Source of the DNA: a virus
Lineage: Duplodnaviria; Caudoviricetes
Length of the DNA stretch: 64,000 nt
Reading direction: 5' to 3' (one strand)
Virus record (IMG/VR): IMGVR_UViG_3300025018_000148
Span: 7,094 to 71,093 of that record
The notes under the pieces were generated by a model. It made no database searches, was not told the DNA's origin, and worked only from the letters and a program-made list of their open reading frames with translations. Positions 3 through 60,978 of the stretch are shown piece after piece; positions within the stretch are counted from its first letter, which is position 1; each line of letters begins with the position of its first letter. Both the position numbers and the translations under genes were made by a program.

Positions 3-338
3 ACCGTTGATTATTGGGTAGGGCAGTCGGTCGTGCCCGAATTGTGGGTGGAGAAGGATGCGTTGATTGACGTGATTCGCACCGCTTCCCGAGGGTATGA
101 CGTGACCACGTTCTCTTCCCGAGGCTACCCCAGCGACTCCGCCCTCTATGAGGCGGCTCAGCGGATCAAAGCGAGGTATCGCGAGGAAGGGCAACAGACC
201 AAGGTTCGCCACAAAGGGTTGGACAAAACCGTGCGTGTCGTGGTGGGCAACTTCGGATCTCGTGCGACTGCCTTCGATGCGGTGGACATCACGAACCCTC
301 CCGAGTGGCAGATCTTTCGCCCCCACTACCAACCTTGA
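3..338 (+). CDS. 5'-partial ORF; N-terminal part resembles phage Toprim/TopoVI-A-like family, apparently chimeric C-terminus
   Basis: Frame is open from base 3: TVDYWVGQSVVPELWVEKDAL...SRGYPSDSALYEAAQRI matches the DxWxxQ..vEvWvEKDAL..RGYxS family motif; the expected downstream GDxDPSG motif is absent. Confidence 0.55.
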   Translation, partial: TVDYWVGQSVVPELWVEKDALIDVIRTASRGYDVTTFSSRGYPSDSALYEAAQRIKARYREEGQQTKVRHKGLDKTVRVVVGNFGSRATAFDAVDITNPPEWQIFRPHYQP

Positions 339-371
339 TTTCGTTCAACCTCACACCTAGCTATACCTACC

Positions 372-1949
372 ATGAAATTCGATGTCGCAAATACCGCAGT
401 CTACAATCGGGGCTCCGCTCCATTGACCTTCCTTGTTGAACTGGTCAACATTGTTCGGGGTCTGCCCGACGAGATCGTCAGTCCCGAATACAAGTCCTCC
501 TCCGAGGAGGACATCTTCGCTTTCCTGCAACGAGGTGTCCCTGCCGCGTATCAGATCGACTCGGCCCGCCCCATTGAACGGAAGGCGTGGCTTTGCGAGG
601 TGCTCCGGGTTCTCGGGGGCTTTGAATCCTCGTGGAATTGGTTGGAGGGACGGGACACCACCAACCCCGCTTCGTTCACCCCCTGCACCACGGAAGCCGG
701 GATCTTCCAGTGCTCCGGGAACTCGACCTATTTCGATCTGTCCCTCAAGGATACCGTGGCGAAGTATGCGAGGCAGGCGAACATTAACATCGAAAAGCTT
801 TCCGCCGACAAGGTCTGCGAATTGTTTCAGGTGCTCTCGAAGCAGAGTCACGCTTTCGCCGTCGAATACGTGTGCCGCTTGCTGCGGTTCACGATTCGCC
901 ACCACGGTCCAATCAAACGTGGTGAGATCCTGCCGTGGCTTCGTGAGGGTGCCTACAAAGAGTTCCTCCGCAATCTTGAGGAACCGGCTACCATTCCCGT
1001 TCCGGTGCCTCCCTCCAAACCCGAGCCGATTCGGATCGTTCTCGATCCCGGTCACGGGGGGCATGACTCCGGAGCCCTCGGCTCCCTCATGCTCGGAGGC
1101 AAGGCAACCGAGTTCACCGAGAAGGACATCGTGCTACGGGTCAGCAACGAGTTGCTCAGGATCTTGAGCACGGACTCTCGATTCTCGGCGACTGCCACCC
1201 GGACGACGGACAAGTTCTTGACCCTTGGTGACCGCTCCCGGCGTGCCAACGAGCGCAACGCCGCTCTGCTGAGCATTCACGCCAACTCGGGAGGCGGCAC
1301 CGGGCACGAGGTCTACACCTACTTCGGTCAGTCCCCTTCCGACCCAATCGCCACCTCCCTCTACGATGCCTACGACTCGGCTTTCCCCGAGCTTGTGGGT
1401 CGCCCGCATTTGGGGGACGGGGACCCTGACAAGGAAGCCAGTTTTGCCGTGCTCCGGAACACCAAGGGGCCTGCGGTCCTCTACGAACTGGGGTTCATGG
1501 ATCGCCGGGAAGACCTCGCGCTCATGGTGGACACCGAGTTCCCCGCCCGCGCCGCCATCGCGCTCTATCTGGGGCTCCTGAGAGCGTGGAATCTCGGTGC
1601 CCCTGTCGAGCCCCCTGTCGAGCCCCCTGTCGAGCCCCCTGTCGAGCCTCCTGTGCCTCCTGTGCCTCCTGTGCCGCCTGCGCCGCCTGCGCCCCCTGTC
1701 GAGCCCCCTGTGCCCCCTGCGCCTCCTGTCGAGCCTCCTGTCGAGCCTCCTGTCGAGCCTCCTGTGCCTTCGGAGAGCCCCACGAGCGAGGAGAAGACGA
1801 GGATCGCCGCATGGCTCCTCCGAGGGGCCTTGGATCGTGAGGCAAAACTCCCGGCTCTGCTGGAAGACCAGACCATCGGCACGTTCTACGCCATGTGCCG
1901 GGAAGCGGCTGCTCTCCGGGATGCAGCCCGTATTCTTCAAGAGGCATGA
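372..1949 (+). CDS. Endolysin: lysozyme/SLT-like N-terminal domain + N-acetylmuramoyl-L-alanine amidase (Amidase_3) + Pro-rich linker
   Basis: IVLDPGHGGHDSGA, TEKDI, LLSIHANS and VLYELGF are Amidase_3 zinc/catalytic motifs; the N-terminal FESSWNW...EAGIFQ resembles a lysozyme-like fold. Confidence 0.85.
   Translation: MKFDVANTAVYNRGSAPLTFLVELVNIVRGLPDEIVSPEYKSSSEEDIFAFLQRGVPAAYQIDSARPIERKAWLCEVLRVLGGFESSWNWLEGRDTTNPASFTPCTTEAGIFQCSGNSTYFDLSLKDTVAKYARQANINIEKLSADKVCELFQVLSKQSHAFAVEYVCRLLRFTIRHHGPIKRGEILPWLREGAYKEFLRNLEEPATIPVPVPPSKPEPIRIVLDPGHGGHDSGALGSLMLGGKATEFTEKDIVLRVSNELLRILSTDSRFSATATRTTDKFLTLGDRSRRANERNAALLSIHANSGGGTGHEVYTYFGQSPSDPIATSLYDAYDSAFPELVGRPHLGDGDPDKEASFAVLRNTKGPAVLYELGFMDRREDLALMVDTEFPARAAIALYLGLLRAWNLGAPVEPPVEPPVEPPVEPPVPPVPPVPPAPPAPPVEPPVPPAPPVEPPVEPPVEPPVPSESPTSEEKTRIAAWLLRGALDREAKLPALLEDQTIGTFYAMCREAAALRDAARILQEA
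1601..1769 (+). repeat. Tandem 12-bp/9-bp repeats encoding a (VEPP)n/(VPP)n linker
   Basis: Repeated cctgtcgagccc/cctgtcgagcct units in the endolysin 3' part. Confidence 0.9.
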
Positions 1950-2419
1950 GGAAGCGAAAGGGAGTGTATTGGAAGTGGGTGTCCACCGGACCCTACGAGA
2001 CCGACGTTCTCGTGGTGCTCGGCGGAGATACCTGCAATGCGACCGAGATCTTTCGAACCGAGATGGAGAAGGCGGGTTTCGAACTCCCGCCTTTCCCCGA
2101 AGCTATGATTGATGATACAACCACCAATGGTAGGTTCTTCAACTTTCATGGCATTCGGGACTGCGGGATCTGGTTCCCCAAAATCCCTGACAATGTCCGG
2201 GAGATAGGGACGGTCGCTCACGAGAGCGTCCATGTCGCCAACCACACCCTCGCCCGATGTGGAGTTCACTATTCGGTGGAGGGCATGGAAGGAGCGGAGT
2301 CACCGAATGACGAACCGTGGGCTTACTTTGTTGGGTTCCTTGTTCGTTCCATCCTATCCTTTGCCAACGAGGTGCGAGCGGACCTCACTAAGAAAAAACC
2401 TGCGACCAAAAAATCCTAA
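1946..2419 (+). CDS. Hypothetical protein with HExxH motif (metallopeptidase-like)
   Basis: ATGA overlap with the endolysin stop; AHESVHVANH followed by NDEPWAY. Confidence 0.6.
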   Translation: MRKRKGVYWKWVSTGPYETDVLVVLGGDTCNATEIFRTEMEKAGFELPPFPEAMIDDTTTNGRFFNFHGIRDCGIWFPKIPDNVREIGTVAHESVHVANHTLARCGVHYSVEGMEGAESPNDEPWAYFVGFLVRSILSFANEVRADLTKKKPATKKS

Positions 2420-2431
2420 CCTCAACATATC

Positions 2432-2947
2432 ATGCCCCGAGTAACCCGAGTAGCCAAAGCACGCAAATCCCAAGGGACTTGTTCCAAGTGCGGAACCAAG
2501 ATCAAGGCCGGAGACCCCTACCTCTGGTGGAAGTTCAAAGTCGGCGGCAGAAGGAACCGTTGTGCGGCTCCGGCTTGCGCTCCACGAGCTTCCGATCTGA
2601 CCCAGTCCGAGTTTCTCGGGCAGTTGTATGACCTCCAAGAGCAGGTCTCGGGGTGTCGCTCCGGCGACGAGCTTCAGGAACTCGCCGATCAGGTGCGGGA
2701 TCTTGGCTCCGAGCAGGAGGACAAGCTCTCCAACATGCCCGACAGCCTCCAGTATTCGCCCTCCGGGGAGATGCTTCAGGAACGCGCCGACTACTGCTTG
2801 GAGTGGGTGGACGAATTGGAGAGCCACGCGCACGAGTTCGAGGAGCTTCAGGAAGCCATGGACGCAGCGGAAGACGAGGAAGCGGTTCTCGAAGCGGAAG
2901 AAGCCATTGAGAACTGGGCGTCCTCGATCCCCGACTACCCCGGATGA
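2432..2947 (+). CDS. Hypothetical protein: basic Zn-finger-like N-terminus + very acidic helical C-terminus
   Basis: CSKC...C..PAC motif; D/E-rich tail; A/C-rich leader before ATG. Confidence 0.7.
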   Translation: MPRVTRVAKARKSQGTCSKCGTKIKAGDPYLWWKFKVGGRRNRCAAPACAPRASDLTQSEFLGQLYDLQEQVSGCRSGDELQELADQVRDLGSEQEDKLSNMPDSLQYSPSGEMLQERADYCLEWVDELESHAHEFEELQEAMDAAEDEEAVLEAEEAIENWASSIPDYPG

Positions 2948-3177
2948 GTCTCGAACTTACACAGGAAGTGTCCCTCGCAAAGTTGATGGACGTGACACCG
3001 GTCGGGGGGTTCTTTCTCACGACCCGTGACGCTCGTTACATCACAAGGTATGCGGGGAGAAAGAGGTTGAAGATCCGGGTGCAATCGGTCAAGTTCTTCC
3101 ACCACTCCTCGGACGAACTTGTCTCGGGCAACGTGGTCACCGTGCTGGAACGAATCCCGAAAGACGATGAAGCCTGA
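2944..3177 (+). CDS. Hypothetical protein
   Basis: ATGA-coupled ORF, 77 aa. Confidence 0.6.
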   Translation: MSLELTQEVSLAKLMDVTPVGGFFLTTRDARYITRYAGRKRLKIRVQSVKFFHHSSDELVSGNVVTVLERIPKDDEA

Positions 3178-3475
3178 TGTCTGCAACAACCTACTCCACG
3201 AGACTCTCGCCAAGGTATTGATGAACGCGGCGCACGTAAACCCCGAGATTACCGGGTTCATCACCTTGGAGTTTGTCCGGCAATTGGAGATCCTCGTGTT
3301 CATGACGACCGGGAATTCCTTCAACCCTCCCATGCACAAGAACTCGTGCTTCCTTCCGGTGGTCCCGGATGGAAGCACGGCGAGGATTCTTTTCAGAGTC
3401 AGCCCCAGCCCTCGCATCGCTCTGGCTGCGTGGGAGGTCACTTCCAAACAATCCAGAGTAGCTCTGCAAAACTAA
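3167..3475 (+). CDS. Hypothetical protein
   Basis: ATG at 3167 overlaps the end of the previous gene and fills the gap. Confidence 0.5.
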   Translation: MKPDVCNNLLHETLAKVLMNAAHVNPEITGFITLEFVRQLEILVFMTTGNSFNPPMHKNSCFLPVVPDGSTARILFRVSPSPRIALAAWEVTSKQSRVALQN

Positions 3476-3481
3476 CCCGGT

Positions 3482-3730
3482 ATGAAATACGTTATCTTCG
3501 ATCAAATGGGGCAAGAGCGAGTGGTGGTCTTCGATGAAGAGATCTCTCACGCTTGCGTCGTTCACCCTGAAAACGGGGAGCCTGTCGCTGCGGGATTCTT
3601 CTACGTCGATTTCGATGGGAGCGTGGTTCTCGACAAACGTCCCGCGCAGAGTCTCGCCGACCTTGGACCTCGCCCCCAAGACGCTTCCAGCATCTCCCTG
3701 TTGCTCAAGGGATTCTCGTCTCTTGAGTGA
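3482..3730 (+). CDS. Small phage hypothetical protein (MKY...H...PVxAGF family)
   Basis: 82-aa ORF with typical codon usage; pattern recognisable in small phage proteins. Confidence 0.65.
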   Translation: MKYVIFDQMGQERVVVFDEEISHACVVHPENGEPVAAGFFYVDFDGSVVLDKRPAQSLADLGPRPQDASSISLLLKGFSSLE

Positions 3731-3772
3731 ACCAACCTTGCTCTCTTCCACGAATTCAATACCTAAACTATT

Positions 3773-4570
3773 ATGGATAGACTCGAAATACCCGCAACTC
3801 TTTCGTGGGAAGAAATCTCGCCCAAGCTTCCGGAGTGGGCGGTGAAGTTCAACGATGAGCAGAGAGCCTTGGTCCCCGAGATCCTTGACGCCTTGGTCGC
3901 GAATTGGGTCCGGGACGACTGGTTCACCACCCTCGATTTCCGCTATCTCCCGGACACGGTGGGGGACGGAGGGACACCCTACGGCAATGTCGTCCAGTCG
4001 GTTCTCGAATCCCCCCTCGTTTGGTATCACCCGGACGGGGTTCTCAAACAGCCTTTGCTCGACATCGTGGTGGAGAATACCAGATACTTGTTCTCCAACT
4101 TCATTCAGCGGCAGGCTCGCAAAGCCCCGTATTCTTTCAACACCGATTCCTTGAACACCATGCTGCGACTGCCGGGGTGGAAGGAGCTTGTGGATTTCCC
4201 CCACGAGGACCGATACCCGGAGCAGCACGGGAAGGAGCCCATTGCCCCCTACATTCTTAAAGACGAGGGCGAGAGGGTCAAGTTGGTGCCTTCCGACCGG
4301 TATGAAGCCGCCCGTTGGTGGGATCGGATTGTCGTGCAACCGGGGTGGCTGTCCGTGGAAGTCCCTCGGCCCCTGTCTTCTGCCTACTGCTACGGGTCGC
4401 ACCCACAAACCCCCGAGAACTGGCGTGGGGAATGGAAGTGGTTGAACGCCCGCGAGACGATTGGGGAGACAACCTACATTCGTTTCGACGAAGGCTACTT
4501 CCGGGGGCGCTTCGTCGTTCGGACGGACTTCATGGAATTCAAGATCCGGCGCTTCCGGACCCGCATTTAA
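3773..4570 (+). CDS. Degenerate, internally deleted paralogue of the major capsid protein
   Basis: Collinear matches to MCP 31135-32304: PDTVG/PDEMG, QSVLESPLV/QTALESPPV, IVVENT/ILTQNT, YEAA/YETA, GEWKWLN/GDWKWLN, GYFRGRF/GYFRGIF. Confidence 0.8.
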   Translation: MDRLEIPATLSWEEISPKLPEWAVKFNDEQRALVPEILDALVANWVRDDWFTTLDFRYLPDTVGDGGTPYGNVVQSVLESPLVWYHPDGVLKQPLLDIVVENTRYLFSNFIQRQARKAPYSFNTDSLNTMLRLPGWKELVDFPHEDRYPEQHGKEPIAPYILKDEGERVKLVPSDRYEAARWWDRIVVQPGWLSVEVPRPLSSAYCYGSHPQTPENWRGEWKWLNARETIGETTYIRFDEGYFRGRFVVRTDFMEFKIRRFRTRI

Positions 4571-4597: not shown

Positions 4598-5905
4598 ATG
4601 GAACTGACCATACACCCACCTATCGACAAACTGGACGAGTATGTCCTGCAACAGCTAGAGGAGTCTGATCTCTCCGAGGAACAGAGAGCCTTGGCTCGGG
4701 AGATCATCACCACCCGCGACAACTTCCTCGTCACCGGGAATGCGGGGGTGGGTAAGAGCCACCTCCTCAATTGGCTTCGCCGGTTCATCAACCTCTCGGT
4801 GACTGCGTCTACCGGGATCGCTGCGATCCAGATCAAGGGGAGCACGATTCATGCGTTCGCCGGTCTCGGTATCGGCAAGCAGACCGCAGCGCAGATCGTG
4901 AACAGCCTTGCGGAGAAGGCGTTCAAATACAACGACCGCACCCTTCGTCGCCTTCAAGAATGTGAGCGTCTTGTCATCGACGAGGTCTCCATGCTGGATG
5001 CCGACATGCTCGATCTGCTGGAGCAGGTGCTCATGCTGGCTCGGGGCCGGGAAGAATCCTTCGGAGGCGTCCAGATGATCTTCATCGGGGACTTCCTGCA
5101 ACTGCCCCCTGTCACGAAGAAGGGACCCCCGAAGTTCGCGTTCACGGCGGAGTCGTGGCAGAATGCCGGGGTCAACGTCCGCCTGCTCACCAAGGTTTTT
5201 CGGCAACAGGACGAACACTTTTCCGCGATCCTCAACAAGATTCGTTTCGGAGAGACGGACGACGAGGTGTTCCAGTTCTTGAAGGCGCGGCACAAGGCAG
5301 TGGACACCGACCCGGCGCATCCTCCTTGCATCCTTCACACCCACAATGCCGGGTGTGAGGAGAAGAATTTGACCGAACTCGCCCGCCTGCCGGGGGAGGA
5401 AGTCATCCTCGAAGCGACCGAGTCGAGCAAGCATCCGAACTTCGCCAGTCAGATTGACAAAGAATGTTTGGCTCCTCAAAAGCTGCACCTCAAACTCGGA
5501 GCACGGGTCATGCTTCTCGCGAACTACAACCTGTCTCGGGGTCTTGCGAACGGGTCCCTCGGGGTGGTGCAGCAGATCTCTACGACGGAGGTCGAGGTCC
5601 TGTTCGACAACGGGGAGACCTGCAATGTCATCGAGTCCGATTACGAACTCATCCGTGGGGACGAAGTCGTCGCCACCCGGAAGCAGTTTCCTCTGCGCCT
5701 TGCGTGGGCGATCACGATCCACAAGAGTCAGGGGATGACCATCCCCAAGGTCGAGGCGCACCTCGCCGGGTGCTTCGCCAAGGGACAGTCCTACGTGGCG
5801 CTCTCGCGGGCCAAGACTGCGGAGGGTCTGTTCCTTCGGGGTGGCAGCGCCAACATCGAGGCGCACCCCAAAGCGGTTAAATTCTACCAAGAGCACTGCC
5901 GATGA
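4598..5905 (+). CDS. Pif1/RecD-like SF1B DNA helicase
   Basis: GNAGVGKS Walker A, ASTGIAA, IDEVSM, GDFLQLPPV, VFRQ, QFPLRLAWAITIHKSQG, YVALSR. Confidence 0.92.
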   Translation: MELTIHPPIDKLDEYVLQQLEESDLSEEQRALAREIITTRDNFLVTGNAGVGKSHLLNWLRRFINLSVTASTGIAAIQIKGSTIHAFAGLGIGKQTAAQIVNSLAEKAFKYNDRTLRRLQECERLVIDEVSMLDADMLDLLEQVLMLARGREESFGGVQMIFIGDFLQLPPVTKKGPPKFAFTAESWQNAGVNVRLLTKVFRQQDEHFSAILNKIRFGETDDEVFQFLKARHKAVDTDPAHPPCILHTHNAGCEEKNLTELARLPGEEVILEATESSKHPNFASQIDKECLAPQKLHLKLGARVMLLANYNLSRGLANGSLGVVQQISTTEVEVLFDNGETCNVIESDYELIRGDEVVATRKQFPLRLAWAITIHKSQGMTIPKVEAHLAGCFAKGQSYVALSRAKTAEGLFLRGGSANIEAHPKAVKFYQEHCR

Positions 5906-7390: not shown

Positions 7391-7415
7391 CTGCCCGCCC
7401 CAGCCCCGCACGAAG

Positions 7416-7456
7416 GAGGCTCTGCTGGTTTCGACCGGCAGAGCCTCTATTCTTTC
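7416..7456 (+). terminator. Intrinsic terminator where the + and - blocks converge
   Basis: gaggctctgctggt-TTCG-accggcagagcctc followed by tattctttt. Confidence 0.75.
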
Positions 7457-8061: not shown

Positions 8062-8100
8062 AAAAAAGGGAGCCGGGGCGCATGGCGTCACCCCGGCTCC
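8062..8100 (-). terminator. Intrinsic terminator
   Basis: Minus strand GGAGCCGGGG-loop-CCCCGGCTCC-CTTTTTT immediately downstream of the 8414-8112 gene. Confidence 0.75.
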
Positions 8101-8111
8101 CACCGAGCGGG

Positions 8112-8528: not shown

Positions 8529-11500
8529 TCAGAAGTTGTCGTCCTCGGAGAGTTGCTGCACCGGGGGGACCAGTTGCAGGGCTTCCCGGAACAATGCGAT
8601 CCGGTCTTGATTGAGTTCTCGTCCGTTCTGGGTGGCAATGGTGTAAGTCTCCTTGGTCGGCATGTAGCGCCGGTATTGGTTGGAGAGGATGTCGGCAATC
8701 GCGTCATCTCCGAGTTTGCTCGATTGAAGTTCCCGGACAACGTCCCCCTTGGTCATGGTCCCCAGACGAATCGCGGCAACAGCCTTCCGACGAATCCTCA
8801 AGTATGCGTCCTTCATCTTATCGTTCGCCCGCACATACGAGGAAATGATCTCATCGTTGCTCTGGGTCCCCGGCGATTTGAAGACACGAGTGAACTCGGA
8901 AGCCGCCTGCCGCTGATCGTATTTGAATGCTCTCGCACCCCAAGAAAGATTGGACTCGGAGTTGGTCGAGGACTTTTTGATACCGAAGGCTGCGGACACG
9001 AACTCGTTGGCGAAGTTGTAGCTCCGACCGGCTTGGGACACTTCCTCGTTCCACCCCTTCATGATGCGACGGATCGAAGCGAGGGACCCCGGTTCGAGGG
9101 CGCTCTCGTAGATGTGTTGAAGGGAGAGTTTGGCTTTGCGAAGAAGCGGGTCGGTTGTGTCATAGACATTGCCCCCCGATTTTTCCACGCCCCGAGCGAT
9201 GTCAATCAAAGCCCCGAAGAAGATCTGCTCCTTGGCGACCGGGTCGATCAACTCGGAGAGGGTTTCCGTAATGGTCTCAGGGACTCCCGAGTCGGGGTCT
9301 TTCATGCCCCGGATGAAGGCACGAACCGGGCGAGCCCAAACATCGTAGGGGTTCATATAGGAGAGGTTGAAGTAATCAATGTCGCCATTGGCTTCCCTCC
9401 CCATCATGACGAAAGTGGAGTTGGTCTCCCAGTAGGGAAGTTGCTGGCGGAGATCTTCTTCGTCTTCCTCGTCCCAACCCGACTGGGCTCGGGCGAGAGC
9501 CACGATGCCGTAGAGTCCTGCCGTAGCGAGAGCGAAGCCGGTGAGCCGCGAAACCCCGGCAGCGACCAGGGCACCATTGTTGGTCTTCAGACCTTCAGCG
9601 ACGTGCGACAGACCCGTGCGGAGGATTCCCGCAGAGGTCCGGTAAACTTCGGCGGGGAAGGTGATGTATGGCGCAAGGAAAGGCATGAGTCGGATCGCTC
9701 TCACCAGTTCGGGAGCTTGCGAGTAAGTGGGCATGGTTGCCCGAACAATCTTGGCGGCTTCTTCCTCGATCTCGGAGCGAGTTGCGTTCGGGCGAAACTT
9801 CTCCACTCGCTTCAACTCGTTCTCGAAGTTCACGATTTTCCAGAAGTCGTCTTGCGACCCATAGAATCTTGTGGCGGATTCGAAACCTTTTCCGACGAGT
9901 CGAGAGAGCAGGGTCTTTTCCATCATCTTCTCGACGAACGTCACCGCTTTCTTCTTCGAGGAGAACCCTTGGGTCAGTTCAGAGATCAACGACTCGGTCA
10001 CCGATTCGCCGATCACGTTCAACTCGACCAAACGGATGATCCTTTCGCGGATAGCCTTGGGTCCCCGGTTGCTGAGATTCACGAAGTCATCGACGATGGC
10101 AGTCTTGATCTGCCACGGAGATCTCCAACCGAGGTTGCCGTTGGCGACGGTAGGGATGATGTTCCCCCAGAAGTTTCTCCACGCCGACTGCCACGACAAC
10201 ACGGTCTTGGTCGCCATCGAATACCCGGTCAAGCTCTGGAAGAACTTCAGCCACGCCGGACGGGACTGGTCAGACATGGTCTGAGCAAGAGCATCCCGGA
10301 GAGCCGGGGGTCCGTAGAGTCCGGACAGAGGAGTGAACCGGACATCCGGGGTATTGTTGAACCGACCCGTCATGCCGTTGTTCGTGAGGAGCGGCACCAA
10401 CCGGTTTCCTTGCCCATCATACTGGGAGTTCTCAGATACCCAGCCCTCCTTGACTCCGAGATCCCGGATCTCTTGGAAGAATTTCTGGGTGGCGAGGAAC
10501 TGGGTCACGGCTCCCAGAGACTTGGCGGCATTGATGATCGGATCGTCATACTCGCCCCACAGTTCGCGGATCTCCGGAGGGATCGTGCCCCGTTGCATGA
10601 GCGTGTTGACCTCCTTCGACACGGTCGCGCCTTGGAGGATGTTCTTGACGCCGAAGTCGGCGACAGAGAGATAGTCGTGGAACTTCTCCCGGACCATGTC
10701 GTCGGTCACTGCCGCTTGCGCCTGAGCGAGAGCCGCAGGTCCGGTGGCGGCACCCGAGGCAATGAGCTTTGCCTGCTCTTCCGCGATCAATTCCGCACGG
10801 ATGAAGTTGAGCGACTTGTTGCGGATCGTGGAGGCTTCGGCATCCTCCGAGAGCAGCCAGTCCACGTAGTTGTCCTGATCGAAGATCTTGTAGGAACGGT
10901 GCAACCAGAGCCCCTCATTCTCGTGGATGGTTGCCTTCAGATCTCCGGAGATCAGACCGTCGCGTTGGAGTTCTTTCGAGAGCAGGTCGATCTGTTGGCG
11001 CATGTCCCGAAGCACATCCACAAGATCTTTAGGGAGTTGGTTGTTCAGGATGTCATCCTGCCGCACCCGAGCTTGTTGGCGAATGCGGGCGCGAGCTTGC
11101 TTCTCGTAGTTCTCGGCCCGCAGCTTGTAGGCTTTGACATCGAGATCGAACTGCTCCTTCGCAGTCTCCCGGAGCTTGGCAGCTTGGTCGGCGAGGGAGC
11201 GATTGCCGGTAGTCGTCGCTCGGGTATCAAGGCTCTTCGCTCTCTGGCGAGCCTTGAGGTAATCCGACTTGGCTTGGGCGAGTCCGCTCTTCCGGATCTG
11301 CCGGGAGAAATCTTCGTCGGCGAGAGTCAGCCGGTTGTCGGTGTTACCGAGAGCCTCGTTCACGAGAGCCGTGGGCCATTTATCCTCGGGGCCGAAGTGC
11401 TTCTTCATCAAGCTCCGGACCTCCGCATGGAAGAACTCAGCACGCTTCATGGAGGCGTTCACCCGCCCCCGAGATTTCTCAAGCTGCTCGAACAGGCGAC

Positions 11501-14500
11501 GATCCCAGCGGAAGGCCGCAGAGAACCACCCCCCTTGATTGTATCCCTTGGTCTTCCCGGAGTTGTAGAGCGGGACACGTTGTTGTCTCCCCCACGGAGA
11601 GGCGTCCAGAGGGACCGACCTCGTTTGCCCGGTTTCGATCTCCCGCCCTAGCAGGGCATTGTATACGGTGGTGGGAGTGGGGGCTCCTTCGGAAGGGTTG
11701 AACGGGATCTCTCCCCGGTCAATGTGGAGCTTCCGATTCTCCATGACCCAGAGAGCCTTGGACACCCGATCCATGAAGGAGTGCAGAGCCGGATCGCGTC
11801 GAACGCGAACCCATTCCCTGAGCCTGCGGAGCACGGAGCGAAGGTAGAAGGTAGCCCGTCGAAACACGCCGGGATTCATGGACAGGAAGCCAAGGGTCTC
11901 CTCGGTCGTGTGCCCCGTCCTGAGCCTTTCATAGGTCATCCGGAGTGCTTCGTGCCCCAGACGATAAAGTCGCGTCTGACGCTGCGCAGGCGTCAAGCGT
12001 GGGTCGTTGCCGGTGAAGTCGATCAAAGCCTGTTGGTAGTCCCGGTCGCTGGGATACGCCGACCGATGAAGGTAGTTGCGGGCGACATCGAGTCGCTCGT
12101 CAAGTGACATCTGGTTGGCATGTGCGATCACCTCGGCGTCCCCAAGTTCTTGGGTGGCACCAAGGTGGACAGTCTCGTGAATGAAGATCTTCTCAATGGC
12201 GTGGGCGGCATCCTGCGGATACATGCCCTCCGTCATTTCCGAAAGCATGTCGGGGTTGAAGATGAGTTGCCTTCCCACGGTGCGGGCGGGAACGGGGACG
12301 GTGCGGTCGAGTCGGGTAGGCACGTTGGGATACCGAATGCGAGCCCGCTCAAGAAGCGCATTGGTCACTTCCGACCATTCCCCGCCACGAGTATACTGAG
12401 TCTGTTGGGGAGAATCACCGGTCGGGCTTGCATTGAGAGGCGTGTTCTTTCCGCGAGCAGAATGAAGATTGCCTCGGGTGCGAAGAAAAGTGTCCGTGGC
12501 TTCGATGAAGAGATACTCTTCTTTCGCAGTCATGGATCTCGTGGTGTCCCCGTCTTCTTGGGTGACGATCCATACTTCGGAATTCGTTCTCTCGTTGTAG
12601 TCGAGGAGCATGTCGATCCGGTCACTCACTGCTTGCTGGCGGGCGTCACGCATCTCTCCGGCGATCCGTTCAAGAGCATCTTTGTTCCTGATCGAGTCTT
12701 CGTCGAAGTTGTCGGTCACGGAGGAATACACCGATCCGTAGTCCCACTGCCCATCTTCGTAGGTAGCCCAAACAATGTCGCCGTCCGGAGTCTTGAAGAG
12801 ATTGGTTCCGGGGATGGAGGAAGTTTCGAAATCTCCGTCGTCGCGGACACGGACCAAGGTCAAGGGCTTCTTGTCCTCAAGGTATGCTTCCGACTCCTGC
12901 ACGGAATCCGTGTTGAACATCTCCTCCCTCACCTCTGCCACGGTGCGAGCCGTGGGATTGGAGGTAGGACTGGCGTCCAAGGGTGTGGTGTTTCGGTTCG
13001 CGATCTCCGGGAACACATCGACCGGGAGAAGGGTGGTGACCCCGGTCGTGTTGCCGGTGAATCGGAAAGTCTTCCCGGTCGAGGACACGTTGGAGACGAT
13101 CCCGAGTCTCTCGGCAGAGACGAGGGCAAGCATTCTTGCGGCATTCTCTTGAGGATCGGTTTCGTCAATGGGAAGGAAGGTGGCAGAGCGCACTTGGCGA
13201 CCCCGGCTATTCTTGGTGTCTTCCAGAAGTCGCAGCACCTTGTCGAAAGCCATGCGCTGCGTTCCGCTCATCATCGCTTTTTGACGATTACGCTCATCCA
13301 TGAGTTCCCCGAAGGTGACTCCGGTCAGGAAATCGTTGATCGATTTGAAGGGTTCAGGTGCAGTTTCCGGAGTCACCTCGGGAGCCGGGTTCGTGACAGA
13401 GTGGATCTCGATGGCATCGAGCCCCGAAGTGTAGAAGCTAACCCCGCTGGGTCCCTCTCCTCGCTGCAACTCCATCACTCGGGCCGGACGTTTGGCGAAG
13501 GTGACGGTGGCACGGAGGTTGCCATCCTTGAGCTTGTTGACCGCGACTCGCGCAGGGCGCTCTCCGTCCGGGTCCACGTAGCGGTCTTTCAACGCATCCC
13601 GAAGGTCGGAGGACACGTTCGTCACCGAGCCGGTCAAAGTGATCTCACTGCGATCCTCGGTCTGCCTGAAGCGGGCATTGGTGGCACCCGTAAGACCGAA
13701 AGAATATTCTTGAGCCTCGGGCTCTTGAACGGTATCGGGCTCGGGGGTCACCTCGGCTTCGGTCTCCGGGGCTTCGAAAGAAGCAAGCTCGTTGCGGTCG
13801 AGGAGGTCTTCGATGGTCTCCGGTTCGAAGTCCTCCTCGGAGTCAGCGGTAGCTTCTTCCTTCGTCAGGAACAGGACATCGATGGCAACAGCCTCTCCTT
13901 TTTCATTCACGATGAAATTTTGCGGAGTCACTTCCTCCATCAGGATAACCCCATCGGGGGTCTGCCACACGGTCCCGGAACGATTCCACTCGCTCCAACC
14001 CTGTTTCTCAAGCAGGTTCCTCAGTTCGAGGGGGCTCTCGGGGTGACGACCTTCGACGAACGGTTGAGAGGTAACCATTCGCCCATCTGGAAGAAGTCCC
14101 TCGACTCGAATGTCATCCCCCCACATGACATTCTGAGCTTCGAGACGAACCAAGTATTTGCGGAGGTTCCGCGACTTGCCGTAGTCGGGGCGACGGAGGA
14201 CTTTCCAGACCCGACCGGTCGAGTAATCGTTCCAGACTTCGTGCTCCTCGCCACTGGTGTAGTCGGGCTTGTCGGGGTCCATTCCAGCCGGAAGCCCCGG
14301 CAAGATCTTCAGCCCTCCTCGCTGGGCTTCTGAGGACCTCCGAAGCGGCGATTCGACTCCTCCGCCTGCTTCTTCATTTGTTCGGCGGAGACTCTCGACG
14401 ACTTCGGTCGGGCGGGGATTGTCACTCCCCGAATTACTCTTGAGCCAGTCTCGGAAGAAGCGGGGGGACGCTGGGGAGGTGCTGCCGTCCGCAAGGATTC

Positions 14501-17500
14501 GACTGCTCTCTTCGCCCAACTCTTGTTTGACTCCCCAAGATTCCTGCGAGGCAAGCTGCGGGAGAACACTGGGGTCAGGGAACTTTTGTTTGATGGATTC
14601 GACGGTGGTGTCGAATCCGAAGGGGAGGATGGGTTCTTTTGCATTGTTGGGGTTCCCTCTGTTGGATTTGGTGTTGACGGTGGTGAAGGTCGAGACATCG
14701 AAGAGCGCGTCTTGGTCAGCGGCAATCGAGATCTCGACCGCAGTGTCGAAGTTGATGATGGGGAAAGAAACGTCGAGCACAAAGCGGTTGGTGTCGATGT
14801 CGAACCACCCTCCGAGTTGCGCTCCCGGAATGTCGAACATATCTGCGTGCTGCTCTAAGTAAGCTTCGAGATCCGCATCCGAGAAGTCCTCGTTCACGAA
14901 CGCCCCCGTCGCTTTCGAGGGTGCGACGAGGTAGCCAATCGTGGCGAAACTTCCGTCCGGTCCCACGGTGAATCCGTCCTTCGATTCCCGGATGATCGCC
15001 GCGAGAGCGGAGGAATTGGATTTGAAGTCTTGGAATCTCGATGGGGCGGGCGGGTTGGTTTCAGAATCCGATACCACAGATTCTTGGGTTTGTCCAGCAG
15101 AACTTTCCGGGCTTCCGGTTCCCTCGGGGGCTACCGAAGGAAGTCTTGGACGGCTTTGCGTTGGGCTGCTTCCGGAAGGAGTTGCAGTCTCAGCCTTTCT
15201 TTGAGAGGCAGTTTGCGAAGAACGTCTTTCCACTCGGGAGAGGTCTGCGAGGACTTCGTCGAGGAGTTCTTCGACTCGTTGCCTGACGTTGGGGTTTTTG
15301 GTTTCATTGTAGATTTGTTCCCTCAGATTGTTTAGTTCATCGACGGCGGCACCAAGTTCCTCGGGAGTCGCTTCGACATCCTCGTCCGTGGTGAGCTTCA
15401 GTAGGTTGGGTTTGTTGATCAGGTGCCGGGTGAGAGACTGTTCGAAGATACGAGCGTCCCGCTCATACTGCTCGGCAGTGTATTCTTGCTGCTGGTTGAA
15501 ACGGTCAATTCCCTCGCGAACTTCCGCCCGCACTTCCGGGATGTCCTGCACCTCTTCGAAGCGGGGATACTCGATGGCGATCTCGGCTCCTTGTCGAGCC
15601 CGCAATTCGAGACCAACTGTGATGGCGTCGTCCCCTTCGATGGTGAACTCCTTGCCGGTCTCCCGGTCTTTCAGGGTCATCGACGGGGTGTCTCCGGTGA
15701 AGTCGGACGCCACGAAGCCGGACACGGTGGAACGCTTTCCTCCGGGGGTCGAGGCGAAACGGTTCGTCACGACTGCGCCATCTTTCCTCACGAATGCCGT
15801 TCTTGGCGTTCTCGTGCGGCTGGAGACCGGGGTAGCCAGTTTCCGCCCTCCCACCTCGGAGATGATCTGGGCGGCTTGTGCGTCGTCCTGCTCGGCGCTT
15901 TCGTCCAAGGACACCGAGAACTCGCTTTCGGAGAATTTCTGGTCCGGGTTTTTCCCGACGATGATGGGAGGAGCCGTGGGTCCCCGGTCGAGGAGGACCG
16001 TCCCGTCTTCTTCGATGACCAAGGTTCCCGTCTCCCCCTCAACACGCACCGGTCGTCCCTCAACTGCGCGGAAAGTGGGCTCGGCCTTGGTGGGGGTGAC
16101 CGGCGTGACTCCCCCGGCAGCGGGCACGTCTGTTGCGGTCCCGGAAGAAGGAGTCTCGACACCATCAACAATCTCGGTTGTTACTTCACGTTCACGAGCT
16201 TCTTCGATGACTTGCTCAAAGGACACCGGAGTGTTCTTGTATCGGTCGTTGATCGTGCTGACAACCTTGGTTCTCGCTTCCGTGGCGTCCATGCCCTCGG
16301 CGACCAGTTCAGCAACAGCCCGGTTGCCGGTGGCAACCGGGTCATACTCGGCACCCGGAGTGACCGTCGCGTTCAACAGGTTCGAGATCTCGTCCCGTCG
16401 CGCCTTCAACTTCGTCGTGTCCGTGTTCGGTTCGGCTTGATCGATCTGCTGTTCGATCTGGTCGAGTTCGTCGATCAAAGAAGTGACACGAGCTTCCGCT
16501 GCATCGAACACCCGGTTGCCTGCCACTTCGACTTCCCGGACGTTGGCTTTTTCAAGAGCGTCGGCAGTCTGAGTCAGACCGGCTTCCCGGAGTTCCTCGA
16601 CCTTGCGTCTCCGAGCATCCATTTCGGGGGACCGCAGAATCGCTTCGTTGGTGCGGGCAGCAAAAGACTCGAAGGCATTGGTGGGGAGTTCCACGGCTCC
16701 CCCGATGACGGCACCGGCAGTCCCGGCGAAGAGGGTGTTCTTCCACCAGTCCTCCCACGTCATGTCCGGGTTGCTGATAAGGGCATCGAGACCCCCGTTG
16801 ATCCCTTCGTCCAAGGCTTCCTCCAGACCTTCCGAGAGACCCCCTGCGGTGACGCGACCTGCAAAGGCCAAAGTATTTGCGGCACCGTCACTCAGTTCGG
16901 TCTTGAACTCTTTCGCGGCATACTTCTTGATTTGATCGGAAAGAGTCTTCCGAGCCGCAGGATTGTTGGCGACTGTGTTGAGACGAGCGATACCCTCGAT
17001 CCCTCGAAGACCGAAGACGCTCGTGATCGCAGCGGTGATGACTCCCGTCCGGGTTGCATCGAGCAGACCTCGTTGTCTCGCCTCGGCTTCGAGTTCTTCC
17101 CCGGCGAGACCCTGCGCGGCGAGTTCGCTCCGATGTCGTTCGTAGTTCTCGTAGAAAGCGGGACCGGCAGAAGAGGCTCCGGCAAGGGCGATTGCCATGG
17201 GTTTCTGGAGCAGGTCGAGATACTCACCCGTAGCCAGTTTCTTGGTCGGACTCTTTGCGAGGAGACTCTTGGCAAGTTGCGCAGATACCTGCTTCTTCAC
17301 CCCCTTCTTGGCGGCTTGAGCAGCCACCTGTTTTGCGACGGTCACGGTTCCCCCGGACAGCATGGTGGTGGCAATCTGAACGAAGGCATTGGCAGCGGGG
17401 TCGATCAACTTCCCGGCTCCCTCCAGCCCTCCGAGCAATTCGATTCGGGCACTGGCGCTTTGCTTGGCTGCGGAAGTCTCACCGAGAAACCCCATGGAGG

Positions 17501-31134: not shown

Positions 31135-32304
31135 TTAAGCCACGGGGTTGTGGTTTTCGTCGATGAAGACGTTCTGGACGTTGGCCCGCTTGTGGCGAAG
31201 CACATATCCGAACTCCGGATGGATCGGTTCAGACCCGGACGAGAAGATCCCACGGAAGTAGCCCCAAGACTTGTCGGGGTTTTCGACCCGATCTGGGATG
31301 TTGAGCCACTTCCAATCCCCCATGTATTTCTGAGCCTCGAACTCGGTCTCGCCACCGGGAGTGGTGATCGAAGCCGGGATGAGAGAACGAAACACCGAGC
31401 GGAGGAAGATGATGGTGTCCTCGTAGGTAGCGGTCTCGTAATCCGGATTCTCGACAGCCCTCGACCCCTTGGTCGTGGCGACAAGAATCAGCGGCGGGAC
31501 CTCGACCCACACACCCCCGGTGAAGTTCCAGCGGGGCGGGAAGTCGTCGATGAGATGGTAGAACCCGTTGTAGGCGCGGCTGACACCGAGAGGAGCAAGA
31601 AGCTCGGGAGCACGAGAAGTGTTCCGAATATCCTCACGGATCTCGTAGTCCTTGCGGACGATAGCCTTGTCCGTTTCGGGCGACATGATCGCGACGAACT
31701 GCGGGCGACCATCGACGTAATCGACAGAGCCGTCATCACGAGCCGCACCCTGACGAGTGAGCTTGAGGTGGAACCGTTCGAGGATGTCGCCGGTCAGACG
31801 ACCAGTGGGTTCCGTGGTCGGGAAGGAGCCACTGGCTTCCGGGAAACCGTCAGCGCAGATGACCTTGTGCTCCGAGAGGCGCACATACTCGCTCCGGTGA
31901 CGCTCCTGCCAAAGCCAACCGGTGTTCTGGGTCAGGATGCTGTAACAGTTCTCAAGCTGCTTGCGCCGCTTGAACGTGAAACGCAGGTCGTTGATACAAA
32001 CCGGAGGCGATTCGAGAGCCGTCTGCTGGAGGTTGTAGTTCCGAAGGGTTTGAGCGAATTCGATCTGTTCGGCAGTAGGCACACAGTTGGAGCCAGTGCC
32101 ATCGTTGAAGGTGACCGTTTGCCACGTCGGAGAGTTCGCAGGGATCGTGCGCTCGTAAGTGAGCACCGAAATCTGCTCGCCCATCTCGTCGGGCCAAGTC
32201 CCCTTCTCGACAAGATCGATCCAGACAGTAGTGTGAAGCGTGCGGTCGTGGATGTCCTCGGAGATCCGTCCCGATTCGCTTACCAAAAGATCGTTGATGT
32301 CCAT
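31135..32304 (-). CDS. Major capsid protein
   Basis: 389 aa; downstream of portal and scaffold; own long leader, candidate promoter and terminator. Confidence 0.8.
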   Translation of the reverse strand: MDINDLLVSESGRISEDIHDRTLHTTVWIDLVEKGTWPDEMGEQISVLTYERTIPANSPTWQTVTFNDGTGSNCVPTAEQIEFAQTLRNYNLQQTALESPPVCINDLRFTFKRRKQLENCYSILTQNTGWLWQERHRSEYVRLSEHKVICADGFPEASGSFPTTEPTGRLTGDILERFHLKLTRQGAARDDGSVDYVDGRPQFVAIMSPETDKAIVRKDYEIREDIRNTSRAPELLAPLGVSRAYNGFYHLIDDFPPRWNFTGGVWVEVPPLILVATTKGSRAVENPDYETATYEDTIIFLRSVFRSLIPASITTPGGETEFEAQKYMGDWKWLNIPDRVENPDKSWGYFRGIFSSGSEPIHPEFGYVLRHKRANVQNVFIDENHNPVA

Positions 32305-33383: not shown

Positions 33384-34667
33384 TTACCCGAAGGTGATGT
33401 CACCGCTCGCGAATCTTTCGTCCACACTTTCGAGGAACGTCGATCCCGGTTTGTAGTCCTTGTCGGACTTGCCGGGGGCGGGGTCTTTCCCGCTCACTCC
33501 GACTCCCTTGCCCTTGCCGGGGGCGGAACCAGTCAGACGAGCAACGGACTTCTCAAGCTCTCCGATGCGCTTGGTGTAGCCCGCACGCTCCGCAGCGTGC
33601 TTCTTGACCAGAGCCGGGACGAGATGAGTAGCGAAGGCTGCGAAAGCCTGCGTTCCAAGAGCGGCAATCGCGAGGTTGGCCCCCCGACCTTTCTTGAAGA
33701 CCTCGGCGAATTCGGGAAGCACCTCTCCGTCTTCCCCAACAATGCCGGGGATCTTGGTGGTGATGTTCTTCCAGACGGTGTCGGCGGCAGCTTCGAGAGC
33801 CTGTTGGTCTTCCTTGCTGCGGGCACCTTTTTCGGCGAGTCCCTTCCGGTCGAGATCCTTCTTCATCTCGGCGGCATTCTTCCGGAACTCGGCATCCTTC
33901 TCGAAGATCTCGTCCGCACGACTCACGAGACCATAGAGCTTGTGCTTGAGGAAGTCCGGCATGTCGTCGGTGATTTCGGACAACTTCTTGGCACGAGCGG
34001 ACAGGTTGGTCTCCGCCAGAGCCTCGAAAATCTCGTTCTCCAGTTCGGAGTCCCCGTCAGAGATCGCTTTGACCTCCTTCTCAACACGAGCCATGGGAGC
34101 ACGAACCTCCTGTTGATACTGCTCGGAGTTCGTGACCGACACCGCAGCGATGATCTTGTCCTGCTCAGCGAGTTTGGCTTCGAGTTCCTTGACCCTTTCG
34201 GAGGAGACCTCGGGGGCGCTCTCCCGCAATGTCTTGATCTCGGCCTTGAGAGACAGGTTCTCCTTCTCCGCAGCACGAAGCTCCTTCCAACGGGCTTCCG
34301 ACTTGGCTCCCTGCTTCTTGACTTCTTCGGGGACTTCCTCCTCGTCATCGTCGTCCTCGGTGGATTCCTCCTTCGAAGCTTTCTTCTTCTCGGGTTCCTC
34401 CTCTTCGAGCTTGGTCAGGTCGTCGAGGGACGGTTCGACAATCTCCTCGATCTCTTCGACCTCCTCGGATTTCGACGGGGTCACCTTGGCAGGAGTCTCT
34501 TTGCCGGGAGTCTCCTCGGATTTCGACGGGGTCACCTTGGCAGGAGTCTCTTTGCCGGGAGTCTCCTTGCCGGGGATTTCTTCGTGTTCGGGGGCGTCAA
34601 GGACCGTGCCACCTTCCGCAATGCGGGCGTCCAGCAGATCCATGAGTCCTAAGCGTTGTGTGGACAT
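33384..34667 (-). CDS. Capsid scaffolding protein
   Basis: Acidic disordered N-terminus, long coiled coil, between portal and MCP. Confidence 0.7.
   Translation of the reverse strand: MSTQRLGLMDLLDARIAEGGTVLDAPEHEEIPGKETPGKETPAKVTPSKSEETPGKETPAKVTPSKSEEVEEIEEIVEPSLDDLTKLEEEEPEKKKASKEESTEDDDDEEEVPEEVKKQGAKSEARWKELRAAEKENLSLKAEIKTLRESAPEVSSERVKELEAKLAEQDKIIAAVSVTNSEQYQQEVRAPMARVEKEVKAISDGDSELENEIFEALAETNLSARAKKLSEITDDMPDFLKHKLYGLVSRADEIFEKDAEFRKNAAEMKKDLDRKGLAEKGARSKEDQQALEAAADTVWKNITTKIPGIVGEDGEVLPEFAEVFKKGRGANLAIAALGTQAFAAFATHLVPALVKKHAAERAGYTKRIGELEKSVARLTGSAPGKGKGVGVSGKDPAPGKSDKDYKPGSTFLESVDERFASGDITFG
34461..34562 (-). repeat. Perfect 51-bp tandem duplication in the scaffold gene
   Basis: Two identical units 34461-34511 and 34512-34562 (TPGKETPAKVTPSKSEE). 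Confidence 0.95.
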
Positions 34668-44995: not shown

Positions 44996-45847
44996 TTACT
45001 CCTCCTCACCCGACGACGTAGCCAACGAGAAGTCGTCGTCAGCCTGCTCCGCGAGGAAGTCGTAGGTCTCCTTGTCGGTGACCACGCCAACGAGCTTCGA
45101 GGTAGGAACATACCACGTATTGTCGTCGTTCGACTTCTTGACGGACTTGAGCGTCCAGAGACCGGTGAAGAGCCCCCCGGCGCTCTGGAGCTTGCCCATG
45201 CCGTGCGTGATGATCGCCTTGGCGAAGGCATTGTAGGCACCCCCGGCGACAGTGAAGATGACACGCGCCCAATGAGCGCCATCATATTCGAGCGGGAACC
45301 GATGAAGCTCCGACTTGTCGAGCTTGGCGGGAGCCTGAATCAGCAGGACGACGTGAGCGAGCGGCTGGTAATACCGCTCCTCCTCGACCGCTTCCTCGGA
45401 CCACTTGGTCGTGCCGCCCGCAGCAGCCACCTCCGCCTTCGTGGAGACCACGTTGGGAGTCTCGCCCCCTTGGTAATCGACCTTCTGCTGGTAGAGCTTG
45501 GTGATGTCGAGGACGACAAAGTTGAGCTTGTCGTCCCGCGTGGCGAGCACGAGTTCCTTCTCCAGCACGAAGGAACCGATGGGCATGTCCTCCTCCGTGC
45601 AGAGCTTGGAGGCGGGGTTGACGATGTTGAGACGGGGGAGAATGACATCGTTCTCGTCGATCTCGCCATGGACACCCTTTGCGGCGGAGGCGGGGCGGGA
45701 GAGTTCCTGCTTCTGCTGTTTCGCCGGGGGGTTCTTCGCCGAAGCGGACTCGGACGCTTTCGCGGGAGCCTTCTTTGCCGGAGCCGCCTTTTTGGTTGCG
45801 GCTTTCTTCGGTTTGTCGTCCTCGTCATAGAAGTTGAGCTTGCCCAT
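44996..45847 (-). CDS. Putative ssDNA-binding protein with basic PAKK-rich N-terminus
   Basis: DVILPRLNIVNP motif, beta-rich core, acidic C-tail DDDFS...EEE; between nuclease and polymerase. Confidence 0.5.
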   Translation of the reverse strand: MGKLNFYDEDDKPKKAATKKAAPAKKAPAKASESASAKNPPAKQQKQELSRPASAAKGVHGEIDENDVILPRLNIVNPASKLCTEEDMPIGSFVLEKELVLATRDDKLNFVVLDITKLYQQKVDYQGGETPNVVSTKAEVAAAGGTTKWSEEAVEEERYYQPLAHVVLLIQAPAKLDKSELHRFPLEYDGAHWARVIFTVAGGAYNAFAKAIITHGMGKLQSAGGLFTGLWTLKSVKKSNDDNTWYVPTSKLVGVVTDKETYDFLAEQADDDFSLATSSGEEE

Positions 45848-48557: not shown

Positions 48558-48863
48558 TCATTTGCGAGCGATTTTGAACGACAAACGATTTTGAGGATCA
48601 CGAATGTCCGACAAATCCGGCTCCCGGTGTATCCGACCTTCCTGCGCTTTGAAGCTCCCCGCCAATCGGAGATACTCTTCCCGGTGTCGGGCTTCGTAGA
48701 CCGTCCTCGTGCTGGTCACCAGAAGCCGGTAGATCCTGTCGAGTTCCTCGGAAGTCACATACCCCGGAACACGACCCGGAGAGGGCAGCACGGGGGTCTC
48801 CACGACCTGCCGACACCCGGCAACAAAAGCGGCAACGCCGATGAGGAAGCGACGACGGTTCAT
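48558..48863 (-). CDS. Tat-signal lipoprotein-like peptide carrying an MCP-derived segment
   Basis: MNRRRFLIGVAAFVAGC (RRxFL + lipobox); LDRIYRLLVTSTRTVYEARHREEYLRLA is 11/28 identical, ungapped, to MCP 117-144. Confidence 0.75.
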   Translation of the reverse strand: MNRRRFLIGVAAFVAGCRQVVETPVLPSPGRVPGYVTSEELDRIYRLLVTSTRTVYEARHREEYLRLAGSFKAQEGRIHREPDLSDIRDPQNRLSFKIARK

Positions 48864-51160: not shown

Positions 51161-51401
51161 GCTTCTTTGCTCCTCGTAAAATTTGCTTCACTTCGGGGTC
51201 AGACATGACCCGGAGATGGATGCCATCTTCAAGTTCCTGCACGACCATGTTCTGCCCCTCATGACTGGCTGTCGCGGCGAAGACATCCTCGGCAGAGAGG
51301 ACGATGTGCTTCAACCCCTGCTTGTGCATGAGGATCATCAAAAGCTTGTGCCACTGCCCTGAAAAGGCTTCGGCGACTGCGGGGTCAGGATTTATACTCA
51401 T
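51150..51401 (-). CDS. Hypothetical protein
   Basis: 83 aa from ATG 51401, overlapping both neighbours. Confidence 0.6.
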   Translation of the reverse strand: MSINPDPAVAEAFSGQWHKLLMILMHKQGLKHIVLSAEDVFAATASHEGQNMVVQELEDGIHLRVMSDPEVKQILRGAKKHGH

Positions 51402-51618
51402 ATTGTGGGAGGTGTTGGCTGAGAGCGATCCAAGGAGACTCCCCGAGGACCTTTGTGTGAATGTCATGAGAGATGTTGTGAGCCTCGGCAATCAGGATCT
51501 CGTCAATGGTCCAACGACGGGAGGCTTGCGCCACCACCGGGGAAGATTCGAGAATGGGACGGACCCCCGCCACAAAAGCGAGAGCCATCCCGAGGAAAGC
51601 TCTTCGAGAGGACCTCAT
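51385..51618 (-). CDS. Tat-signal peptide carrying an MCP N-terminus-derived segment
   Basis: MRSSRRAFLGMALAFVAGV...VAQA; TIDEILIAEAHNISHDIHTKVLGESPWIAL is 12/30 identical, ungapped, to MCP 2-31; ATGA-coupled. Confidence 0.75.
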   Translation of the reverse strand: MRSSRRAFLGMALAFVAGVRPILESSPVVAQASRRWTIDEILIAEAHNISHDIHTKVLGESPWIALSQHLPQYEYKS

Positions 51619-59895: not shown

Positions 59896-60141
59896 ATGAG
59901 CAAAAAGCACTTCATCGCCCTCGCCGACGCACTTCGCACCTCTCGTCCGGAATGCCACTGGGACCCTAACAAAATCCTCCAGTGGCGTCTGGACGTTCAC
60001 CGAATCGCGGACTTCTGCCAGTCGCAGAACCCGCGATTCGACCGGGGCCTTTGGTTCGACTACATCGACGGGACCCGTGGTCCCTCCGGTGGCAGAATCG
60101 CCAATCCTCCCCTTGGCGTCCTCAACGTGATCGACGCCTGA
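59896..60141 (+). CDS. Early hypothetical protein (K.F..IA...NPRFDR family)
   Basis: Leader motif; MSKKHFIALADAL...QNPRFDRGLW. Confidence 0.75.
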   Translation: MSKKHFIALADALRTSRPECHWDPNKILQWRLDVHRIADFCQSQNPRFDRGLWFDYIDGTRGPSGGRIANPPLGVLNVIDA

Positions 60142-60238
60142 TGGCAGTTCCCACCCTGCCCTGGCAGAACCACAAAGTTTTGTCAGGGCAGCAGGGAGTT
60201 TCCCTCCATTTCAATCTAACCTACACTAACAAAACAAT

Positions 60239-60885: not shown

Positions 60886-60978
60886 GCGTCTCCTGTCAGG
60901 TCATCCCCGCAATCGTGGGGGTGACTTGCAGGGAGATTCTAAGACGAAACTCCACTAACCTAACAAAACAATAATACT

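Follow-up and report, generated by a model that had tools for sequence, protein, structure and literature searches.

An uncultured phage (Duplodnaviria; Caudoviricetes) encodes, in addition to its major capsid protein (MCP), a second and shortened protein of the same family, P0001, which on the evidence of its sequence is an ancient derivative of the MCP family that carries an internal deletion and has been kept as a fast-evolving gene outside the head module. The phage genome is the IMG/VR record IMGVR_UViG_3300025018_000148, which comprises 71,093 bp and is rated complete; the window, i.e., the whole stretch of 64,000 nucleotides analyzed here, corresponds to bases 7094–71093 of this record, and coordinates below refer to the window unless stated otherwise. 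P0001 ("mini-MCP") consists of 265 amino acids (aa) and is encoded at 3773..4570 on the + strand. Its descent from the MCP family by internal deletion had been put forward in the original prediction, and is upheld by the comparison of the two family profiles (hhalign E 8e-12) and by the gap that the alignments reveal. Because the N- and C-terminal parts of P0001 align collinearly with the MCP, its architecture is best described as MCP residues ~54–156 joined to ~240–373. P0001 may act as a soluble mimic of the free capsid subunit, and this reading is weighed below against four others.

The Major Capsid Protein of the Phage

The MCP (P0002, 389 aa) is encoded at 31135..32304 on the − strand, as the original prediction had it, and the assignment proved correct when examined with AlphaFold2 (AF2) and Foldseek. 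Briefly, the AF2 model of P0002, built on 53 family members, has a pLDDT of 76, and its best Foldseek matches are HK97-fold capsid proteins, led by those of the N4-like phages DEV and N4 (E 4e-11 to 1e-9), on which basis the protein is identified as the MCP. The nearest solved structures are those of Pseudomonas phage DEV (9bgn) and Escherichia phage N4 (9e99). P0002 matched none of the Pfam, PHROG, and NCBIfam models and none of the PDB sequences, and is therefore placed in a capsid family that lacks annotation and has an N4-like fold; a search of 50,697 phage records likewise returned no match. Homologues of P0002 are present in at least 324 metagenomic clusters, partly marine and many of them on contigs of 65–78 kb, and the closest MCP relatives share 76–92% identity with it.

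The P0001 Gene and Its Genomic Setting

The open reading frame (ORF) of P0001 is complete from ATG to TAA and specifies a protein with a pI of 5.4 and no signal peptide. Its codon usage scores 0.34 bits/codon with a GC3 of 0.75, compared with 0.40 for the downstream gene of a Dda-like helicase and 0.38 for the MCP gene, and this likeness to confirmed genes rules out a spurious ORF. The antisense ORF at 3191–4408 was also considered as the true gene and was rejected (codon score 0.005 vs. 0.34 for P0001). A degenerate ACCTAA leader (3761..3772, + strand) lies directly 5′ of the P0001 ATG, where no Shine-Dalgarno sequence is found. With this codon usage and a leader resembling those of its neighbors, P0001 is a real gene. 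The Dda-like helicase gene (4598..5905, + strand; phrog_325, E 8e-65) begins 27 nt downstream and is preceded by the leader ACCTAAC, of the same type as those of the early + strand genes, and the two genes probably share an operon. P0001 itself matched no family in Pfam, PHROGs, NCBIfam, or PADLOC, including families of nucleic-acid-binding, defense, and anti-defense proteins.

According to the gene calls, a block of + strand genes extends from approximately 59900 across the record ends to approximately 7390 of the window and adjoins a long − strand block, which carries the structural genes, the DNA polymerase, helicases, and a protein of 3293 aa. A putative scaffold is encoded at 33384–34667. 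P0001 lies in the + strand block, approximately 27 kb from the MCP gene and outside the − strand morphogenesis genes. A 24-nt leader, CTAACCTAACAAAACAATAnTACT, abuts the ATG of approximately 14 + strand genes in nearly identical copies and without a Shine-Dalgarno sequence; these genes are located at 59896–63151 (+) of the window and 30–4409 of the genome, and the leader is found before most early + strand genes. Degenerate ACCTAA(C) leaders precede P0001, the helicase gene, and the gene at 44996–45847 (−), and an exact 19-mer of the early leader had no other match across IMG/VR. Furthermore, strong GC-rich hairpins with T tails, which are likely terminators, are situated at 7415–7448 (+) and 8068–8101 (−), near the convergence of the two blocks. 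Within the + strand block, a gene at 372–1949 (+) encodes an endolysin-like protein of 525 aa with an Amidase_3 domain (E 1e-30), among early-type genes and distant from the structural genes. In the − strand block, the 3293-aa ORF (8529–18410, −) is maintained at 30–35% identity in relatives; its best Pfam match, Kinase-PolyVal, is sub-threshold (E 0.008) and a PDB sequence search gave no match, and the size and position of the product would be compatible with either a virion RNA polymerase of the N4 type or an ejection protein.

Homology Between P0001 and the Major Capsid Protein

The relationship is clearest in the C-terminal block of P0001 (residues 135–262; 4175..4558, + strand), which is homologous to MCP residues ~240–373. 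BLASTP aligned P0001 157–247 with MCP 269–354 (E 1e-4), the Smith-Waterman score of the two proteins corresponded to z = 9.2 and was reached in none of 300 shuffles, and comparison of P0001 with the MCP family profile by hhalign yielded E 1.1e-8. These values, together with the E of 8e-12 for the two families, bear out the proposed equivalence of G135, P159, YEAA, GEWKWLN, and GYFRG in P0001 with G247, P271, YETA, GDWKWLN, and GYFRG in the MCP. Profile searches led to the same pairing: hmmsearch with the MCP family profile matched P0001 at E 8e-10, and a six-frame genome scan with the MCP HMM recovered the P0001 gene at E 8e-8. In the reverse direction, the MCP was the sole match of P0001 in its own proteome, and only MCPs were matched when P0001 was used as the query in five related phage records (E down to 2.9e-8). 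At the DNA level, the GxWKWLN and GYFRG motifs alone are still detectable between the two genes, and the copy is therefore old. P0001 keeps the MCP-conserved residues R147, Y177, A180, P198, G219, W223, N225, G241, F243, R244, and R262. Of 37 MCP columns that are at least 90% conserved in the shared C-terminal region, each member of the P0001 family keeps 15–17, and 11 are kept in all three diverged members. The MCP-invariant NPD (342–344), described as a lattice motif, is replaced by ETT in P0001 and is thus lost, and the invariant PGG, H250, and P360/P363 are absent as well. As judged from these alignments, the homology of the C-terminal half to the MCP family is solid.

The N-terminal block (residues 6–129; 3788..4159, + strand) is collinear with MCP 54–156 and contains a WxVxFND motif, the LESP strand, and the spine helix, which is predicted at residues 92–117 in a low-confidence AF2 model. 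Pairwise comparison of this half with the MCP gave no signal (z 0.3); a profile of residues 1–134 of the P0001 family aligned with MCP 54–156 at E 3.9e-5 in hhalign, and with the template trimmed to MCP 1–160 the E was 3.1e-6, compared with 0.11 for a reversed control. The first ~70 residues of P0001 are weakly matched by themselves (E 0.049). The alignment pairs W22-A-V-K-F-N-D of P0001 with W61-Q-T-V-T-F-N-D of the MCP. It also contains two of the matches of the original prediction, QSVLESPLV with QTALESPPV and IVVENT with ILTQNT, which accordingly hold, the latter at the start of the spine helix. Furthermore, the relative P0126, searched by itself, shows two blocks that match the MCP HMM in collinear order (MCP 93–139 and 271–340), between which 42 residues replace 131 MCP profile positions. 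Overall, the profile alignments provide moderate support for homology of P0001 residues 6–129 to MCP 54–156.

Architecture and Predicted Structure of P0001

Two long segments of the MCP are missing from P0001. No counterpart of MCP 1–53, comprising the N-arm and the first strands, was found, and ~80–90 residues corresponding to MCP ~157–240 are absent from both P0001 and P0126; since the two halves are collinear with the MCP, also in P0126, the internal gap is regarded as real. The original prediction had placed an internal gap of approximately 85 aa here, which stands with these slightly adjusted limits, and a further loss of approximately 40 aa between MCP 42 and 94, taken to be the E-loop, which does not: the W22 motif pairs with MCP W61, and the absent N-terminal part is consequently the N-arm. 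The latter loss had been derived by aligning N27D28, I37, W50, P60D61, and G64 of P0001 with MCP N4D5 through G42, a pairing that received no support (hhalign E 0.54, pairwise z 0.3); the alignment of P0001 27–64 to the N-arm (MCP 4–42) was thus dropped. An alternative hhalign path, placing P0001 73–137 on MCP 170–246, was also rejected for its low per-column confidence and its score of 17 alone, compared with 38.7 for the path through MCP 54–155.

In the MCP model, the region missing from P0001 forms helices at 172–184, 188–192, 209–222, and 233–239, which would be A-domain helices, a name given from the usual HK97 order rather than from superposition. The retained LESP strand, spine helix, and C-terminal strands would correspond to the P-domain and the later A-domain strands. 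This domain assignment is made by alignment to the secondary structure of the MCP model, since P0001 has no confident three-dimensional model of its own. P0001 hence departs from the full-length MCP architecture of N-arm, E-loop, P-domain, and complete A-domain.

The AF2 model of P0001, calculated from a 4-sequence alignment, has a pLDDT of 44 and a pTM of 0.26; Foldseek found no match for it in the pdb set at E ≤ 0.001, VIA-align returned generic helical matches only (Z ≤ 6), and the ESM Atlas search gave nothing usable. The low-confidence model contains a helix at 92–117, strands at 160–164 and 169–173, a helix at 175–179, and strands at 184–188, 240–250, and 258–262. The MCP model contains a helix at 110–143, strands at 272–276 and 281–285, a helix at 287–291, and strands at 294–300, 347–360, and 367–372. 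The order of the predicted elements of P0001 (92–117 and 136–262) follows that of the MCP, in a low-confidence model whose input alignment contained no MCP sequences.

Distribution and Evolution of the P0001 Family

With HMMER, 1.84 billion representatives were searched exhaustively and three relatives of P0001 were identified; in all, the family has four members among approximately 15 billion proteins. P0004 (on an NCBI contig of 8.4 kb) is 98% identical to P0001; P0125 (257 aa, on a contig of 1.7 kb) shares 34% identity with it over the full length (E 1e-19); and P0126 (245 aa, on a contig of 3.9 kb) was matched at E 2e-7. A further candidate, P0127 (723 aa, with repeated LNGWRWxN), was discarded as a chance match of a repeat motif (E 0.11 in hmmsearch against the MCP profile). 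No other member was found in INPHARED phages, IMG/VR, or GTDB genomes, and the JGI metagenome contigs yielded 13-residue chance matches only. P0001, P0125, and P0126 have acidic or polar N-termini that lack an RR motif with a hydrophobic stretch after it, and a C-terminal K-x-R-R-x-R tail (KIRRFRTRI in P0001) is conserved in the family.

At identities of ~30–34%, the family retains intact frames of 245–265 aa, a common internal deletion, and 42 invariant columns, which argues for a kept gene rather than neutral decay. Decay of the gene, with stops or frameshifts in relatives, had been named beforehand as an outcome that would count against the proposal, and no sign of it was seen in the four intact homologues, which have a common architecture. 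A tree of the region shared with the MCPs places the P0001 family in one clade (SH-aLRT 99), consistent with one origin, on end branches of ~1.2 compared with a median of 0.11 for MCPs, although the placement of the clade is unsure on such long branches. The family evolves approximately ten times faster than the MCP. P0001 is thus a kept gene that evolves fast, and not debris.

Among related phages, P0001 is an optional gene. It is absent from five complete relatives (68.9–78.6 kb) and from the related genome G003; even at E ≤ 1 the MCP HMM found one match in each of the five, compared with four in the present genome. In tblastn searches, the + strand block that carries P0001 together with the helicase and amidase genes had no match in G003 or G005, so that the earlier placement of P0001 in an accessory region agrees with a block that is not common to related phages. 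In the complete relative G004, the MCP match (G004:C1:55499-56689) contains one in-frame TAA, which could be explained by an error in sequencing, by a split gene, or by recoding.

Two Further Capsid Pieces in the Same Genome

The two remaining matches of the MCP HMM are short ORFs on the − strand. The 101-aa ORF (48558..48863) begins with an MNRRRFL leader and a lipobox-like AGC and continues as a copy of the MCP spine helix (MCP 111–145) that includes RHRxEYxRL, invariant residues lost from P0001; it matches the MCP with an hhalign E of 2.8e-6 and z 7.8, and with E 6.8e-5 in the genome HMM scan. The 77-aa ORF (51385..51618) carries an SRRAFL leader ending in AQA, to which a copy of the N-arm (MCP 2–33) is joined, with an hhalign E of 3.5e-7, z 9.0, and E 4.4e-5 in the genome scan. 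The leaders of both, recognized by eye, are of the twin-arginine (Tat-like) kind. No additional MCP matches of this type were found in the five complete relatives.

Possible Functions of P0001

The favored reading is that P0001 is a soluble mimic of the free capsid subunit, used in a conflict, and we judge the chances that this is correct to be evenly balanced. Without the N-arm and the A-domain helices, P0001 could not be expected to take the normal place of a subunit in a capsomer. Furthermore, it would be made in the cytoplasm and independently of the head module, because it has no export signal, is encoded 27 nt upstream of the helicase gene on the same strand, and belongs to a + strand block that relatives do not share. 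Since the parts needed for building a shell are absent, the protein would most likely imitate the unassembled shell subunit, and could occupy a partner that normally binds the P-domain of the MCP. Candidates for such a partner are a sensor with which the host detects capsid protein and, in a competing phage or a satellite, the subunits of the capsid or the scaffold. Capsid proteins trigger the CapRel, Thoeris, and CBASS defense systems (PMC13728456), and a capsid homologue, Ccm of SaPIbov5, is used against another element (PMC8569155). Several points speak against the mimic: the first ~70 residues show weak homology; fold searches with P0001, which lacks a confident model, produced only noise; the + strand block also contains the amidase gene; and the binding of a mimic might activate a sensor instead of blocking it.

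Alternatively, P0001 could serve the phage's own head as a minor virion or assembly protein, either an accessory subunit bound to the capsid or a chaperone that holds the MCP before assembly. Its derivation from the MCP, with many MCP-invariant residues kept, would fit such a role, and there are precedents in N4, whose capsid decoration protein gp17 is encoded outside the late module, and in T4, whose vertices use the MCP paralogue gp24. However, P0001 is missing from the five complete relatives, which have the same capsid family, and from G003, it is encoded outside the − strand morphogenesis genes, it has lost the N-arm and A-domain helices, and a roughly tenfold faster evolution than that of the MCP would be unexpected in a protein that works with a slowly changing shell; we regard a role in the head as unlikely. 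Recruitment of the capsid fragment to a non-capsid job, possibly the handling of DNA or RNA, would be in line with the probable operon with the Dda-like helicase and with the conserved basic tail, yet no nucleic-acid-binding family was matched in Pfam, PHROGs, NCBIfam, or PADLOC, and because the MCP ends in a similarly basic LRHKR, the tail appears to be inherited rather than new. We consider recruitment of this kind still less likely.

The two Tat-leader ORFs permit another explanation, in which P0001 would form the center of a set of three parts that dock on each other, so that P0001 would leave the cytoplasm as a passenger. Three MCP pieces occur in this one genome and none in the five relatives; the N-arm missing from P0001 sits on the 77-aa ORF, and the lost RHRxEYxRL on the 101-aa ORF. 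The genes, however, belong to different transcription units on both strands, and the 101-aa ORF overlaps the helix region that P0001 itself has and fills no gap, and this three-part arrangement is rated very unlikely. A related version, in which leaderless P0001 and the two Tat-tagged peptides with its missing N-arm and spine-helix motifs together form an MCP look-alike that disarms host capsid sensors, or is exported to the envelope against rival phages, is distinctly unlikely; if true, it would represent a new class of phage counter-defense or exclusion system in which pieces of the capsid are reused. That P0001 is simply the decaying, functionless remnant of a second capsid gene would agree with its extreme rarity (four proteins in ~15 billion) and with the long branches of its family. 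This explanation is highly improbable in view of three lineages at ~30–34% identity in which frames of 245–265 aa have stayed intact, with one deletion in common and 42 columns invariant, and of a codon usage as good as that of essential genes.

Comparison With Known Systems

Extra capsid copies are known as full-size shell parts, as in T4 gp24, or as satellite weapons, as in Ccm. P0001 differs from both in that it is a phage-encoded MCP copy, kept under selection, that is stripped of the N-arm and the predicted A-domain helices and lies outside the head genes, in a genome that also keeps two capsid peptides with predicted export leaders. No paper on a gene like P0001 turned up in the literature library that was searched. 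Since many bacterial defenses are triggered by capsid proteins, a conserved mimic that does not assemble could be put to the test as a candidate counter-measure or as a candidate means by which phages interfere with one another.

P0001 resembles its own MCP family in having the LESP strand, the spine helix, YExA, GxWxWxN, GxFRG, and RxxR in the same order, but differs in the absence of MCP 1–53 and ~157–240, of NPD, PGG, and H250, and in being encoded outside the head module, optional, and approximately ten times faster evolving. Compared with the Tat-leader capsid fragments of 101 and 77 aa, P0001 and its three relatives are leaderless and far larger, at about two thirds of the MCP. The vertex protein gp24 of T4, a paralogue of the MCP gp23, is likewise a second MCP-derived gene within one phage genome; unlike P0001, it is an essential virion component of full length whose gene lies with the head genes. 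The Ccm protein of SaPIbov5 shares with P0001 that it is a capsid homologue whose gene does not belong to the head module, in the case of Ccm that of the targeted capsid, for use in a conflict between elements (PMC8569155). However, Ccm, a homologue of the capsid protein of the helper phage phi12, is encoded by a satellite, has the whole HK97 fold, and fills the pentamer positions of the shell (PMC8569155), whereas P0001 is encoded by a phage and, to judge from its alignment, is too truncated to be expected in a capsomer position.
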